Virus record (IMG/VR): IMGVR_UViG_3300049137_000091 | Location: 25,469 to 89,468 of that record | Length of the DNA stretch: 64,000 bases | Direction: 5' to 3' (one strand) | From: a virus | Taxonomy: Duplodnaviria; Caudoviricetes | In this document: positions 35 through 63,589 of the stretch, piece after piece | How positions within the stretch are numbered: position 1 is the first letter of the stretch | How the letters are laid out: each line of letters opens with the position of its first letter | The notes under the pieces: generated by a model | Databases searched by the model: none | What the model saw: only the letters and a program-made list of their open reading frames with translations | Told to the model about the DNA's origin: nothing | Position numbers and translations under genes: made by a program

Positions 35-595
35 GTGAGCACCGGACTGCCCGAGGGTTTCGCCGTCTACCTGGCCGCCCAGGACGCCATGCACGCCCGG
101 GACGTGGACGACGTCCTCGCCGCGCTCACCGAGCGGGAGCGCGATGTCGTCCGGCAGACGGCCGCGCTCGGCTTCGAGGCCGGGCTGCGCCACCCGGCCG
201 GCGCCGACCACCCGAAGGACGGCGCGGTCGTGCGCGACGTGATCGGCGACCGCGTTCCCACCGTCGGCATCCTGGAGCAGCGGCTCGGCCGTGAGGCGGC
301 CGTCATGGGCTACGTGCAGGGCCGCCGGTACCCGGACGCCTCCGCCTGGGACGCCGACACAGTGCTGCGCCTGGTCGTCGATGCCGTCCTCGCCCACCGG
401 GACAACTTCCCCATCCTCTCCGGGGTCCGGCCGTGCGGCGAGTGCGGCCACCCGCAGTACGCGCACCGGGACGGCGAAGACGACGCCCTTGGAGTGTGCC
501 TCCTGTGCAGCGGCGAGAAGTCGAACCGGGTCCTCCACGACTACCGCCGGGCCGCCCGCCCGGCACCGACCACGGAAGCGAGGAACGCACGATGA
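35..595 (+). CDS. hypothetical phage protein with C-terminal Cys/His zinc-binding motif
   Basis: 186-aa ORF, GTG start, in a chain of overlapping start/stop codons (35-595, 592-888, 885-1217, 1214-1441); CGECGH...H...CLLC motif. Confidence 0.65.
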   Translation: MSTGLPEGFAVYLAAQDAMHARDVDDVLAALTERERDVVRQTAALGFEAGLRHPAGADHPKDGAVVRDVIGDRVPTVGILEQRLGREAAVMGYVQGRRYPDASAWDADTVLRLVVDAVLAHRDNFPILSGVRPCGECGHPQYAHRDGEDDALGVCLLCSGEKSNRVLHDYRRAARPAPTTEARNAR

Positions 596-888
596 GCAGC
601 CACGGATACACCTGGAATGACGTCCGGTCGGTGCCCGTCGGGGACCTGGCCGTCGGCGACGTCTTCGTCCAGCCCGGCGCGGGGGTCGCGTACTACGTCG
701 CCGACGACGGACGAGTGCGGGGCGCGGGCCTCGCGGTCGCCATGGAGCTGGACGGCACCGCGTGGACGGTGACCGCCCGCGACGGCAGCCTGATCACTAT
801 GCGCAGCGGCGACGGCCGGGAAATTAGCGAGGTGGCCCCCACGTCCGCGCGGGTGCTGCGCGTCAAACGGACGGAGGCGGGCCGATGA
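592..888 (+). CDS. hypothetical protein
   Basis: ATG at 592 overlaps the upstream TGA; GAGGAA RBS; 98 aa (internal start of track ORF 433-888). Confidence 0.6.
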   Translation: MSSHGYTWNDVRSVPVGDLAVGDVFVQPGAGVAYYVADDGRVRGAGLAVAMELDGTAWTVTARDGSLITMRSGDGREISEVAPTSARVLRVKRTEAGR

Positions 889-4092: not shown

Positions 4093-4171
4093 CCTGCTCG
4101 TTCAGTGATTCCGCGCATCGTCGCTACGCTCCCGCCACCGATCACAGACCACGGAACGGAAGCGGTTCGTC

Positions 4172-5254
4172 ATGCGCGTTTGCCTCACCGGGGCGTCGGG
4201 GTTCGTCGGCTCCCACGTCCTGCGCCACCTGCTCGCCGTCACCGGCTGGGACATCGTCTGCCCGGTGTCGTTCCGTCACCGGGGCGTCCCGGCCCGGATC
4301 ACGTCGGCGGCCGACGGGATCCCGGACATGTGGGCCCGGACCGAGATCGTTTACTGGGACATGCGGGCGCCGGCCGACCCGGTGACGCTGGCCGCCCTGG
4401 ACGGCTGCGAGGTGTTCCTGAACATCGCCGCCGAATCCCACGTGGACCGGTCCATCGCCGACCCGACGACGTTCGTGCAGAACAACGTGGCCATCATGCT
4501 CAACGCGCTGGACGCGGCCCGCCAGGTCGGCCCCCGGCTGTTCCTCCAGATGTCCACCGACGAGGTCTACGGCCCGGCCGCGCCCGGCGTCGCCCACCGT
4601 GAGTGGGACCCGGTCGTCCCGTCCAATCCGTACTCGGCGTCCAAGGCGGCGCAAGAGGCGGTCGCCGTCGCCTACTGGCGGACCTACGCGGTGCCTGTTG
4701 TCATCACCAACACCATGAACATCATCGGGGAGATGCAACACCCCGAGAAATTCCTGCCCATGGTGATCCGCAACCTGCGTGACGGCCGCCCCGTCCCGGT
4801 GCACACCGACACCGACGGCACCCCGGGCAGCCGGCACTACCTACACGCACGCAACCTGGCCGACGCCTGGCTGCACCTGATCCGCCGCTACACCGGTGGG
4901 ACGGAGACGGTGCGCACCCTGGGCGGCGCCGCGTACCGCATCGAGCCCGGCCCGCCCATGTACTCGGGCGGCGCCCCGCGCCCGGCCCGGTTCCACATCG
5001 CCGGCGAGGAGGAGACCGACAACCGGTCCCTGGTGCACATGGTCGGCAAGGTGATGGGGCTGGACGCCGGCGAGGTGGACGCCCTGATCAAGCCGGTCAG
5101 CTTCCACGCCACCCGGCCCGGCCACGACCTGCGCTACGCCCTGAACGCCGACGCGATCGCGCGCACCGGGTGGACGGCGCCGCTGCCGCTGCGTGCCTCG
5201 CTGGAATCCACCGTGCGCTGGAGCCTGGACCACCCGCAGTGGCTGGACCTGTGA
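4172..5254 (+). CDS. rmlB: NDP-glucose 4,6-dehydratase (RmlB/RfbB-like extended SDR)
   Basis: GASGFVG Rossmann motif, STDEVYG catalytic TDE, YSASK (YxxxK), QHPEKFLP, RPGHDLRYA. Confidence 0.85.
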   Translation: MRVCLTGASGFVGSHVLRHLLAVTGWDIVCPVSFRHRGVPARITSAADGIPDMWARTEIVYWDMRAPADPVTLAALDGCEVFLNIAAESHVDRSIADPTTFVQNNVAIMLNALDAARQVGPRLFLQMSTDEVYGPAAPGVAHREWDPVVPSNPYSASKAAQEAVAVAYWRTYAVPVVITNTMNIIGEMQHPEKFLPMVIRNLRDGRPVPVHTDTDGTPGSRHYLHARNLADAWLHLIRRYTGGTETVRTLGGAAYRIEPGPPMYSGGAPRPARFHIAGEEETDNRSLVHMVGKVMGLDAGEVDALIKPVSFHATRPGHDLRYALNADAIARTGWTAPLPLRASLESTVRWSLDHPQWLDL

Positions 5255-10623: not shown

Positions 10624-10809
10624 ATGGCTGGCGCCTACTGCAAGTTCTGTGGCCACCGCTGCTTCGTCTACCGCGTGATCCCCGACGGCCCGCAGGAGGG
10701 CTGGGCCGGACATCTCGCCACGTGTGCGCAGGGCATGGCCCACGACCGAGCCCAGACCGGCCACGACCACACGACGGCCGCCAACCCGGCCGAGCACGCC
10801 ACCCGCTGA
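10624..10809 (+). CDS. small Zn-finger protein
   Basis: CKFCGHRC...HLATC; GAGGAG RBS. Confidence 0.65.
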   Translation: MAGAYCKFCGHRCFVYRVIPDGPQEGWAGHLATCAQGMAHDRAQTGHDHTTAANPAEHATR

Positions 10810-10841
10810 CCGCACCACCGACCACGGAAGAAGGAACCCAC

Positions 10842-11024: not shown

Positions 11025-11070
11025 CCCCGATAGCCTGACTCGCACCACCGACCAAGGAAGGCAGACCCGA

Positions 11071-11465: not shown

Positions 11466-12410
11466 ATGGAAGCCACGCTCGCAATCGCGGACATCGCCGC
11501 AGGCATCGAGGACGAATGGTGCTGGACCCCCGGCCTGGGCTGGCTGCGCTGGGACGGCGCGGTCTGGTGCCCGACCCGGGACCGCGACGCGCTGCGCGAC
11601 CGCATCAACCGGGACCTGGCCGCGCAGGGACACCGCCCGCTGACCATCGCACAACTCCGCGCGGAGACGGCCGCACTCCAGGAACACCTGCGCGTGGACG
11701 CGGACACGCTGGGCGCGTTCCCCGGACTGCTCAACGCGCGCAACGGAATTGTGGACCTGCGCACCGGCGAACTCCGGCCGCACGACCCGAACCGACGGAT
11801 GACCCGGATCACCGGTGTGGACTACGACCCCGACGCGACCTCCCCCGCGTGGGACCGGGTGCTCGCCGCCATCCCGGAGGCCGAGAGGGACAGGCTCCGA
11901 GTCCGTCTCGCCTGGGCGGTCGCCTGTGAACCCCTGGACTCAGTCGCCCTCGTCCACGGGCGCGGGCCGTGCGGGAAGACCACGTTCATGCGTGCCGTGT
12001 GCGACACACTCGGCAGCTACGCCTTCACAACCGGGGGCGGGCTGGACAACCTGCGGACTCCGGCCGAGCGCGTCGCCCTGATGGGCGCCCGCGTGCTCGT
12101 GATGGAGGACGTCGCTCCGAAGGACATGGCCAACGTGAAGCTGATGGCCGTCCAGGACCGACTCACCGTGCGCCAGCCGCAGGAAGACACGGCGCAGGCC
12201 CCGCGCACGCACAGCGTGTTCGCCGTGACCGCACACCGCCCGGCCGACCTGGCCGTGGACGAGGGGACCGAGCGTCACCTCCACCCCGTGGAGTTCCCGG
12301 CCCTTCCCAGTCCGGACCCGGCCGTCGGACGCGGCATGCGGGACGAGGGGGCGCTGCGGGCCGTGCTGCGCTGGATCGTGGACGGCGCCGTGCGCTACGC
12401 GGCGGCCTGA
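11466..12410 (+). CDS. divergent D5/P4-family primase-associated SF3 helicase (no primase domain)
   Basis: D5_N-like WCWTPGLGWLRWDGAVW, LNARNGIVDLRTGELRPHDP...TRIT, Walker A-like GRGPCGKTT. Confidence 0.65.
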   Translation: MEATLAIADIAAGIEDEWCWTPGLGWLRWDGAVWCPTRDRDALRDRINRDLAAQGHRPLTIAQLRAETAALQEHLRVDADTLGAFPGLLNARNGIVDLRTGELRPHDPNRRMTRITGVDYDPDATSPAWDRVLAAIPEAERDRLRVRLAWAVACEPLDSVALVHGRGPCGKTTFMRAVCDTLGSYAFTTGGGLDNLRTPAERVALMGARVLVMEDVAPKDMANVKLMAVQDRLTVRQPQEDTAQAPRTHSVFAVTAHRPADLAVDEGTERHLHPVEFPALPSPDPAVGRGMRDEGALRAVLRWIVDGAVRYAAA

Positions 12411-16201: not shown

Positions 16202-16273
16202 CCCACGCAGACCCCCGCCCGGGGCCGGCCGGCCCCGGGCTTCGGACCTACCGACCAAGGAAAGAAGGAAGAC

Positions 16274-18478: not shown

Positions 18479-18742
18479 ATGAGCGAATCCACCCGCCGGC
18501 CGGCCCAGCCCGGCGAGCTGTGCACGTGCGGTCGTCCGGCCGTCGTCGTCTACACCGGAGGATCGTTCCCCGACGTCGGGGACTGCGGGATCGAGGGGGC
18601 GGCGTTCCGCCCGGTGCTGCCGTGCCCGTGGTGCCGCATAGACGCCGCGCACGTCACCGGCTGGGGCGACCCGGCCAAGTGCCCCAGCTACAGGCTGCGG
18701 GCGCCGGAGCAGCCGGGGGTTGCGCAGGCCGGTGAACGATGA
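18479..18742 (+). CDS. small Cys-rich protein
   Basis: 87 aa; CTCGRP...CPWC...CPSY. Confidence 0.55.
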   Translation: MSESTRRPAQPGELCTCGRPAVVVYTGGSFPDVGDCGIEGAAFRPVLPCPWCRIDAAHVTGWGDPAKCPSYRLRAPEQPGVAQAGER

Positions 18743-18756
18743 TTTAATCAATTCAT
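18720..18756 (+). promoter_or_regulatory. conserved phage promoter/operator, copy 4
   Basis: TTGCGC-N17-TTTAAT; ATGATTTAATCAATTCAT. Confidence 0.8.
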
Positions 18757-18783
18757 TGCAGCCGACCAAGGAACGAGGGCCTG

Positions 18784-48178: not shown

Positions 48179-48242
48179 CGGTCGGTTCCTTCCTTGGTCG
48201 TAGATGCGGGAGGCCGGGGCCGCGTGGCCCCGGCCGGGGCGA

Positions 48243-48577: not shown

Positions 48578-48652
48578 TCCCCGCGCCGCCGCTAACCAGG
48601 ACCGGGGTGCTCGCTAGTCTCGTCCCCGACGACCACCGACCAAGGGAACGAA

Positions 48653-51352: not shown

Positions 51353-51449
51353 TGGGCCTGTCCGGAGTCGAACCGGAGTCTTCCGGAGCGCGCGGGAACC
51401 GACCAAGGTCGCGCGCTCTACGGTGCACTGCCTTCTGTGCTACAAGCCC
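51353..51449 (-). ncRNA. tRNA-like RNA with an expanded, non-canonical anticodon arm
   Basis: GGGCUUG/CAGGCCC-A acceptor stem, U8A9, D arm GCAC-AGAAGGCA-GUGC, variable loop AAGAC, T arm UCCGG-UUCGACU-CCGGA; anticodon arm = CCG/CGG + UA bulge + GAGCGCGCG/CGCGCGCUC + 15-nt loop; 97 nt; no encoded CCA. Confidence 0.85.
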
Positions 51450-51491
51450 CTGTTGCCGGGATCGCGGCTCCCGGCCGGCCGTCGTGCGGTT

Positions 51492-51617
51492 CTACACCTG
51501 ACGGCCCGTGCCGTCGCAGTCGGGACACGTCCCGCCCCCGCTGCACTCCTCGCATCCGTCCCCGTCGCATTCGGTGCAGGTGCCGTCGATGCAGTTGGGG
51601 CACTGGTCGTCGTTCAT
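51492..51617 (-). CDS. 41-aa Cys-rich CxxCxGxG (DnaJ-like) Zn-finger peptide (not in the ORF track)
   Basis: MNDDQCPNCIDGTCTECDGDGCEECSGGGTCPDCDGTGRQV. Confidence 0.65.
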   Translation of the reverse strand: MNDDQCPNCIDGTCTECDGDGCEECSGGGTCPDCDGTGRQV

Positions 51618-51626
51618 GACCCGGCC

Positions 51627-52334: not shown

Positions 52335-52367
52335 GGTCGGTTCCTCGTTCCGTAGTCCGTCGGGCTG

Positions 52368-53941: not shown

Positions 53942-53968
53942 GGTCAGCTCCTTGGTCGGCACCTGTTG

Positions 53969-54006
53969 ATGAATTAATTAAACCATAGTCTCGGCAACGC
54001 GCGCAA
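53969..54006 (-). promoter_or_regulatory. conserved phage promoter/operator, copy 9
   Basis: TTGCGC-N18-TTTAAT. Confidence 0.8.
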
Positions 54007-54301: not shown

Positions 54302-54391
54302 GGTCGGCTCCTCGTGGTCGGTTCCTGTCCCGGACGCCGGCCGGAGGCTTCCCCGCTGCTGCGCGGTCCTGGCCGCCCGGCCGGCGCCCTG

Positions 54392-56316: not shown

Positions 56317-56360
56317 GGGTCCTCGATTCCTGGGTTCCTTGGTCGGCCGGTCACCCGGCC

Positions 56361-56397
56361 ATGAATTGATTAAATCATTGACGCGGGTCGGCTGCAA
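56361..56397 (-). promoter_or_regulatory. conserved phage promoter/operator, copy 11
   Basis: TTGCAG-N17-TTTAAT; ATGATTTAATCAATTCAT. Confidence 0.8.
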
Positions 56398-58648: not shown

Positions 58649-58993
58649 TCAGCGGGTGGTCGGCGGGGTGGCGAGCAGGTGCACCGGGCGGTCCAGGGCG
58701 TTGCGTCCCCGGAACGTCACGGTCCAGCCGTGCTCGCGCAGGGCGTCCGCGTAGGCGTCGATGCGGTACTTGCGCTCCTCGGTCACGGAGGACGGGACGA
58801 TCTCGCCCGACCTCAGCCCCGCCTGTGCGTCGTGGGTGACCAGGTAGCGGACGCGGACGGAACCGTCGTCCGTGGCGGCCAGCTCGAACCCGGGCTCGGT
58901 GCACAGGCCGTTCTTGGTGACGGCCTCGTCGCTCACGTCGGACAGGATGTCGGCGGCCTGGTCCAGAGCTTCGGAGAGGGTCATGTCGGTCAT
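58649..58993 (-). CDS. hypothetical protein
   Basis: 114 aa; leader AAGGAACCGAC. Confidence 0.6.
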   Translation of the reverse strand: MTDMTLSEALDQAADILSDVSDEAVTKNGLCTEPGFELAATDDGSVRVRYLVTHDAQAGLRSGEIVPSSVTEERKYRIDAYADALREHGWTVTFRGRNALDRPVHLLATPPTTR

Positions 58994-59028
58994 CGTGTGG
59001 TCGGTTCCTTCCAGATCGGTGGTGCGGG

Positions 59029-60413: not shown

Positions 60414-60515
60414 GGTCGGTTCCTGCTTTCCTTGGTCTTCTGTTCTGGTCGGGACGCCGCCCAGGTCGGCCTCAACGCCCTGTGCCTGCGGTCACCCGCC
60501 CGGCGCGGCGTCCCG

Positions 60516-61089: not shown

Positions 61090-61124
61090 GATGCTTCCTC
61101 GCTTCCTTGGTCGGTGGTGCAGAA

Positions 61125-61361: not shown

Positions 61362-61393
61362 GCTTCCTCGCTTCCTTGGTCGGTGGTGCCGGG

Positions 61394-62055: not shown

Positions 62056-62132
62056 GCCTTCCTCGCTTCCTTGGTCGGGGCCGGGTTGCCGGGCAGTGTG
62101 CACCCGGTCCGGCGTCTCGCCGAACGGGCCGG

Positions 62133-63525: not shown

Positions 63526-63551
63526 GGTCGGTTCCTCCTTGGTCGGCTGTG

Positions 63552-63589
63552 ATGGATTAACTAAATCATAGACTCGGGTGTGCGCGCAA
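63552..63589 (-). promoter_or_regulatory. conserved phage promoter/operator, copy 16 (variant)
   Basis: TTGCGC-N18-TTTAGT; ATGATTTAGTTAATCCAT. Confidence 0.75.

Follow-up and report, generated by a model that had tools for sequence, protein, structure and literature searches.

The RNA gene and its genomic setting

The window, that is, the whole stretch of 64,000 nucleotides analysed here, represents bases 25469-89468 of an 89,468-bp IMG/VR virus record and has a G+C content of 71%. The gene families found in it include parA, a DnaN-like clamp, an FtsK-gamma domain protein, a YgjP-like peptidase and a GmrSD_N/DUF262 protein, and a head-tail block adjoins this gene set. The nearest named relative is pS1D4-14.2, a linear 98.8-kb plasmid of Streptomyces sp. 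S1D4-14, which is ~70% identical across the RNA region described below; no INPHARED phage record matching this region was found. Since the closest relative is a Streptomyces plasmid and virus genes are present, the element is a Streptomyces phage-plasmid, and the family that bears the RNA consists of ~90-kb Streptomyces phage-plasmids. A normal tRNA-Glu(CUC) gene is present in relatives (L012:2187-2258 and L113:5287-5359, both on the minus strand), and the window genome is without one.

The gene of a tRNA-shaped RNA, 97 nt in length, is located at 51353..51449 on the minus strand, intergenically between two minus-strand genes of a same-strand operon, and no sigma-70-like promoter was found near it. 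Its 5' flank of 29 nt (51452..51480, minus strand) contains a conserved hairpin (GGCCGGCCGGGAGCCGCGAUCCCGGCAAC) and is near-identical in relatives that are ~70% identical overall. Farther upstream, a 44-codon ORF at 51492-51626 (minus strand) with CxxC/CxxCxGxG repeats (zinc-ribbon-like) stops 43 nt before the RNA. The gene upstream of this ORF encodes a 235-aa protein, and its synteny was kept in all relatives examined. Searches of Pfam, PHROGs and the protein atlas with the 184-aa, 235-aa and 44-aa neighbours returned no informative family, and no recognisable RNA-binding or translation-related family was found among them.

The acceptor stem of the RNA is 7 bp long and its discriminator is A; U8A9 is present, the D stem has 4 bp and a loop with GG, the variable region is 5 nt in length (AAGAC), and the T stem, of 5 bp, carries the loop UUCGACU. 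The tRNA elbow is intact (G18 G19 and the UUCGA T loop). Where the anticodon arm would be, a 3-bp stem is followed by a UA bulge, a perfect GC stem of 9 bp (51386..51418, minus strand; 5-9 bp in homologs) and a 15-nt loop, ACCUUGGUCGGUUCC, at 51395..51409 (minus strand), whose core is CCUUGGUCGGUUCC. The RNA thus resembles a tRNA in its acceptor, D and T arms and elbow nucleotides, and differs in lacking the 5-bp anticodon stem, the 7-nt loop with U33 and an anticodon that could be read. Ponchon and Dardel reportedly engineered, in 2007, a 'tRNA scaffold' in which the anticodon arm was exchanged for a cargo hairpin, and the arm swap seen here is like that laboratory design. The nearest host tRNA by RNA model was tRNA-Ala(CGC), but the RNA carries G3-C70, which excludes an alanine identity.

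An earlier note, made from the letters alone, had described a tRNA body with its anticodon arm replaced, and this description was borne out by the sequence, by the Rfam tRNA model and by folding. The minimum-energy structure was the proposed cloverleaf (-48.6 kcal/mol, z -3.67), and 0 of 200 shuffled sequences folded as well. When the RNA region was searched alone, RF00005 matched it at 44.3 bits (gathering score 29, E 2e-8) over its full length (positions 1-71 of 71); a local insert of 35 nt stood for the 11 model positions at the place of the anticodon stem-loop. Neither ARAGORN in default mode nor a default-filter Rfam scan of the whole window reported the RNA, and ARAGORN in intron mode called it tRNA-Gly(CCC). 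No tmRNA was reported by ARAGORN. At the top of the loop, the hexamer UUGGUC had a predicted unpaired probability of 0.98-1.0; it is complementary to GACCAA, the most strongly conserved segment of the gene leaders considered below.

Conservation of the loop and other tRNA-like RNAs

The RNA was present in fifteen records, a few of which are perhaps one element kept in two collections; they comprise viral contigs, a plasmid from PLSDB, assemblies of Streptomyces, among them S. africanus NRRL B-24243 with a contig of 92.7 kb, and metagenomes from soil. The 14-nt loop core CCUUGGUCGGUUCC was unchanged in 15 of 15 homologous records. The loop bases on either side of this core, the length of the stem (5-9 bp), the arm's base and the D arm all varied, the flanking DNA was ~70% identical, and the D-arm region of one sub-lineage had been remade into a still longer arm. 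Homologs scored 58-119 bits with model R1, and the homolog of pS1D4-14.2 reached 42.2 bits on RF00005. An 11-sequence alignment, which was guided by the model and hence leans towards it, had 95.8% of its cells paired, compensatory changes in 5 pairs and a covariation of 0.203, compared with 0.077 after shuffling and at most 0.073 with slid partners. CCA was encoded after the discriminator in 8 of the 10 copies whose 3' flank was read. The locus-tag numbering of pS1D4-14.2 skips a number exactly at the RNA position, which would fit an RNA gene having been annotated there originally; the plasmid table shows none. Loop-independent DNA-pattern scans of viral, genome and metagenome collections returned only members with the identical loop and unrelated tRNA-like RNAs. 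A search for relatives with the downstream protein found one provirus, without the RNA, and a search of genome contigs with the clamp protein found no relatives.

This pattern of conservation bears on whether the locus could be a decayed or intron-containing tRNA gene of no regulatory role, whose loop matches the leaders only because a leader fragment became inverted. Such an origin would agree with the intron-mode call of tRNA-Gly(CCC), which places an intron at 30/31, with the ARAGORN calls of tRNA-Ser or tRNA-Val for some homologs and with the true tRNA-Glu(CUC) of the relatives. The called identity, however, shifts between homologs (Gly, Ser, Val), and no short spliceable tRNA introns are known from bacteria. 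A relic would also not hold a 14-nt loop invariant across ~70%-identical elements while the D arm was rebuilt, and we regard this origin as very improbable. A specific candidate of this kind, a tRNA-Gly(CCC) interrupted at a non-canonical site by an intron of 21 nt, was tried and rejected, as it needs a C-C mismatch and melting of the perfect 9-bp GC helix.

Another tRNA-shaped RNA of the same genome lies outside the window, at genome positions 10734-10820 on the minus strand (L128), again between two minus-strand genes. Its acceptor, D and T arms are accompanied by an 8-bp stem with a 14-nt loop, AUCCCGGCCCGGCC, and it was found by ARAGORN in intron mode only, with no match to the Rfam tRNA model. 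Its body and a downstream hairpin were conserved in pS1D4-14.2, and its arm and loop differed there; the complement of the loop was not clearly enriched (12 against 4.6, with 2 mismatches allowed). A locus-tag number is skipped at this second RNA as well. Against the Rfam YrlA model it scored only 16.7 bits where 69 are needed. The RNA at 51353..51449 gave no match to YrlA, and its ends form an acceptor stem, those of YrlA a Ro-binding stem.

We also found a looser Streptomyces family of tRNA-like RNAs with the common body CCCCUUG-UA-GCUCAGUCAGGAAGAGC ... CCCGGUUCGAGUCCGGG-CAAGGGG and highly variable central inserts of 30-90 nt (L158:6646-6743; L161:7560-7655; L146:3206-3297; L134:4299-4387 and 4107-4197; L184; L185; L173). 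Its occurrence was sporadic, in 4 of 151 Streptomyces species genomes (E <=1e-6), with one type found again in a metagenome (L220). The loops of L158, L161, L134 and L146 had no repeated complementary sites in 8-kb flanks, the complement of the L158 loop showed no local enrichment in its own genome, and no neighbouring protein was shared among these RNAs. In an alphaproteobacterial MAG, a tRNA-like RNA (L133:7466-7553, minus strand) has as its anticodon arm a perfect hairpin of 14 bp closed by a UUCU tetraloop; tRNA shapes with a replaced arm thus exist outside Streptomyces too, there without a guide-sized loop.

A tag in gene leaders that is complementary to the loop

Eleven copies of CCGACCAAGG were found in the window against 0.26 expected. 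Ten are in gene leaders, at exactly the coordinates where the earlier note had placed them, and the eleventh is the loop itself. A second motif, GGAACCGAC, which the note had reported just before start codons, was likewise recovered, with 7 copies against 1.3 expected, and the tandem of both motifs that it had described before the DUF262 gene was present. All copies bar that of the loop were on the mRNA-sense strand, 0-22 nt 5' of the start codon of high-GC3 frames, and the loop was the sole antisense copy of the leader motif in the whole genome.

Sites of type 1, which carry CCGACCAAGG, occur on the plus strand at 11048..11057 (13 nt before an ATG), 16251..16260 (13 nt before a GTG), 18762..18771 (behind an AT-rich box) and 48636..48645 (the parA gene). 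On the minus strand they occur at 53950..53959, where the strongest duplex is predicted (-24.3 kcal/mol), at 56337..56346, at 61105..61114 in the form CACCACCGACCAAGGAAGCGAGGAAGC, at 61374..61383 in the same 27-nt leader form as the 61105 site, and at 62069..62078. Type 2 sites, in which GGAACCGACC adjoins the start codon, are all on the minus strand: 48181..48189 (the DnaN-like clamp gene), 52336..52344 (the conserved 235-aa gene upstream of the RNA), 54317..54325, 59000..59008 and 60415..60423, the last with GACCAAGG 14 nt upstream. Both types stand in tandem in the leader of the GmrSD_N (DUF262) gene at 63527..63546 (minus strand). Across the genome, initiation regions held 25 copies of GACCAAGG and 13 of CCGACCAAGG.

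AT-rich boxes (GATTTAATCAATTCAT-like) were observed directly 5' of several tagged leaders of this 71% G+C genome, at 18740-18761 (plus strand), 53960-53985, 56347-56370 and 63547-63570 (minus strand). They are probably promoters or operators, which would put the tag at or near the 5' end of the mRNA.

Complementarity was quantified across the whole 89-kb genome on rough gene calls, with the RNAduplex energy of the loop taken against each -40..+6 region. Results showed that 28 of 123 initiation regions paired with the loop at -19 kcal/mol or better, and that 200 shuffled loops reached this level in 1.9 ± 2.0 regions (maximum 14). The corresponding counts were 2 of 194 for coding windows and 0 of 123 for the antisense of the initiation regions. 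Pairing targets made up 26 of 98 non-structural genes against 2 of 25 genes in the head-tail block; one target gene had a ProQ_C-like match below threshold (E 0.005). A typical loop-leader duplex had an energy of -21 to -22 kcal/mol, whereas the 3' tail of the 16S rRNA reached -9 to -12 kcal/mol on these leaders. The type 1 duplex stops ~12 nt short of the start codon without covering a second SD-like element, GAGGAA, and type 2 pairing spans the SD and the spacer.

A second leader class, GACCACGGAA, occurs in 11 initiation regions and is one central base off the loop-matching GACCAAGGAA (25 regions). The 11 further leaders with GACCACGG have their mismatch at the loop centre, where it would break pairing with the RNA; examples of the second class are at window 592-599 (the gene at genome 26060), at 11468 and in the 55043 region. 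The leader tag therefore has a role independent of the RNA.

The distribution of the tag was then compared between the element and its hosts. In one assembly with a 92-kb contig of the phage-plasmid family, 10 of the 29 copies of CCGACCAAGG lay on that contig, at a density of ~98 per Mb (9 leader copies in 92 kb, the copy in the loop left out) against 2 per Mb elsewhere in the assembly, about 45-fold. On the host chromosome a mirror-image control motif was commoner than the real motif, and in a host without the element the motif was at control level. The plasmid pS1D4-14.2 held 35 copies of GACCAAGGAA and 2 of the control; comparison elements that lack the RNA, namely two other ~93-kb Streptomyces plasmids and a provirus, held 1, 0 and 0 copies of GACCAAGGAA. 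These results indicate that the leader tag is a property of the element, not of Streptomyces. The joint presence or absence of tag and RNA represents essentially one lineage, because neither loop nor motif differs among the homologs found in the viral, genome and metagenome collections.

The one antisense copy could in principle be an ordinary leader, if the motif at 51399-51408 served a plus-strand ORF whose GTG lies 14 nt downstream, a spacing like that of true leaders. This frame, however, is a shadow of minus-strand genes with a GC3 of at least 0.91 and failed the GC3 filter; it has no second SD-like element, and the structure conserved with compensatory changes is that of the minus-strand tRNA shape. 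Such an origin of the match can hardly be correct.

The leader directly downstream of the RNA contains a near-match, CCGACCGAAGG, ~20 nt past the RNA, and its counterpart in the relatives is a mismatched version of the motif. A near-match at this place would suit a processing or punctuation module, whose tRNA shape would recruit RNase P and RNase Z to cut the polycistron or to stabilise a 3' end, the loop acting at most in cis on the neighbouring leader. The intergenic position in a same-strand operon with no promoter-like site nearby, the conserved hairpin directly 5' of the RNA and the second tRNA-like element, with its unconserved loop, in another operon of this genome and of pS1D4-14.2 all agree with such a module. 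It leaves unexplained, however, that 14 loop nucleotides are invariant while stem and D arm change, that the loop exactly complements a motif which precedes 25-30 genes genome-wide, and that the relatives carry the mismatched version in the downstream leader. We consider it unlikely that processing is the whole role of the RNA.

A putative antisense RNA and its known counterparts

The RNA feature is real, conserved and statistically solid. Its anatomy, a tRNA body with a loop antisense to many of the element's leaders, is well supported by the covariance-model score, the compensatory changes, the enrichment and element-specificity of the motif and the strict conservation of the loop. As to function, we think it moderately likely that the RNA is a trans-acting antisense RNA in a tRNA scaffold, which would lower the translation or the stability of the tagged mRNAs. 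We infer from sequence that it is expressed and processed and that it represses rather than activates; processing by RNase P is suggested by the tRNA body, the promoterless intergenic position and the CCA encoded in most homologs.

Because the RNA lies between two minus-strand genes without a promoter-like site of its own, it would probably be transcribed as part of an early/plasmid operon. Host tRNA enzymes would release it, RNase P at the 5' end and 3' trimming or the encoded CCA at the other, and this should work because the acceptor stem, the D-loop GG and the T loop are near-canonical. The tRNA body would serve processing and stability, and the rigid GC stem would present a kissing loop, the apical UUGGUC of which would nucleate on the leader GACCAA before pairing grew to 10-14 bp, at about -21 kcal/mol. 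The type 1 duplex would cover the upstream SD-like element at -13 to -25, and the type 2 duplex the SD plus the spacer up to the start codon, so that 30S binding might be hindered or the mRNA marked for cleavage. Some 25-30 non-structural genes, among them parA and the genes for the sliding clamp, the DUF2637, RuvC-like and GmrSD-like proteins and many small ORFs, would be down-regulated jointly, with head and tail genes spared. The RNA may in this way be a global antisense switch, which RNase P and CCA addition would mature.

Since GAGGAA is left free in type 1 leaders, repression is not guaranteed. The complementarity and conservation data would be the same for a positive or adaptor RNA that favours the element's own mRNAs, either by opening, protecting or delivering leaders to ribosomes or by binding a ribosomal or protein partner through its elbow. 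Type 1 pairing, which leaves the proximal SD free, and the intact elbow agree with such a role. It is without known precedent and without a partner gene, however, the neighbour proteins belonging to no recognisable RNA-binding or translation family, and type 2 pairing masks the SD and the spacer, which is hard to square with activation; we regard an activating role as rather improbable. The earlier note had offered, as one of two alternatives, that the RNA steers ribosomes to the leaders, and the analysis gave this no support.

Other points count against the antisense model as well: the second tRNA-like RNA has an unconserved loop, the other Streptomyces RNAs with remodelled arms have no local target set, and some cluster K phages have the start-associated sequences discussed below but no antisense hairpin. 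The plasmid kissing-loop antisense RNAs, such as CopA, RNA I and Inc RNA, have UUGGCG loops and YUNR U-turns and are cis-encoded opposite a single rep leader. The present RNA is like them in its GC-rich stem and in a loop with a Y-U-N-R tetrad (CUUG) and UUGG aimed near the SD, and differs in being trans-encoded and having many targets.

Functionally, the closest known system is the C4 RNA of the phage-plasmids P1/P7, with which the CI RNA of satellite phage P4 is grouped. As outlined in the published accounts, C4 RNA is cut by RNase P from an operon transcript, and its loops cover a ribosome-binding site (Citron & Schuster 1990; Hartmann et al. 1995; PMC5320573). As far as these accounts describe it, both are small operon RNAs of phage-plasmids with exposed loops (or one loop) complementary to the ribosome-binding region of the element's own mRNAs, and both would share release by RNase P via a tRNA-like end and the control of early/immunity functions that is proposed here. 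This precedent counts for the antisense model, and the statement of the earlier note that no system of this form had been described was too strong, C4 as outlined there being comparable (PMC5320573). C4 is, by the same accounts, a three-hairpin RNA with two loops and one target operon (icd-ant), whereas the RNA here is a full cloverleaf with one loop and some 25-30 dispersed leaders; its host is an actinomycete, unlike that of C4. The RNA has no sequence similarity to C4, and the Rfam C4 covariance model did not match it at the gathering score or with the E limit relaxed to 10. The RNA is thus not a member of the C4 family, given the lack of a model match, the other architecture and the many targets in place of one. 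A literature search found no description of a tRNA-shaped antisense RNA of a phage-plasmid.

The leader tag has its own counterpart in the start-associated sequences (SAS) of cluster K mycobacteriophages (Pope et al. 2011, PMC3203893), the role of which was still called unknown in 2024-2025 (PMC11373665, PMC12699233). Both are asymmetric, element-specific motifs that extend beyond the SD core, are always sense and stand a few nt before starts; both tag non-structural genes (13-19 or more) and occur only rarely in the genome of the host. The SAS consensus, GGGATAGGAGCCC, differs from the phage-plasmid tag, as do the phage group and the host genus, and we regard the tag as an analogue of SAS, not a member.

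The right arm of Adephagia contains 15 sense copies of SAS and one antisense copy (1 mismatch). This antisense copy forms the loop of a strong hairpin (-33.7 kcal/mol, z -5.72) in the gp92-gp93 gap (L125:28662-28715, equal to about 58661-58714 of JF704105, plus strand), and late transcription is reported to begin in this gap (PMC11373665). The hairpin was conserved in Validus, Niklas and Amelie. The loop of Ekdilam was two bases off and those of Keshu and SirPhilip were unrelated, and all three phages have 13-16 SAS copies. The cluster K copy sits in a plain hairpin and the phage-plasmid copy in a tRNA body, and the parallel is only partial. No discussion of the antisense SAS hairpin was found in the cluster K papers PMC3203893, PMC11373665 and PMC12699233.

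Taken together, these findings allow a wider reading that we advance only as a possibility, and a somewhat doubtful one: the RNA would be a natural 'tRNA-scaffold guide', matured by host tRNA enzymes, that acts as the master translational switch of an SAS-type regulon in a conjugative phage-plasmid, and the same logic of an antisense loop on a GC hairpin would operate in Adephagia-like cluster K phages, where late transcription starts. If this is true, it would provide the first mechanism for SAS, whose role has been unexplained since 2011. Should the RNA work as the antisense model proposes, one small RNA and a shared leader tag would tie together a large part of the phage-plasmid's non-structural genes. 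Nature would then use the tRNA fold as the carrier of a guide loop, as RNA engineers do. The RNA model offers a testable answer to the purpose of SAS in actinobacteriophages, and strains that carry the element exist in culture collections. The tag and the RNA may also represent a compact, orthogonal module of translational control for Streptomyces genetics.
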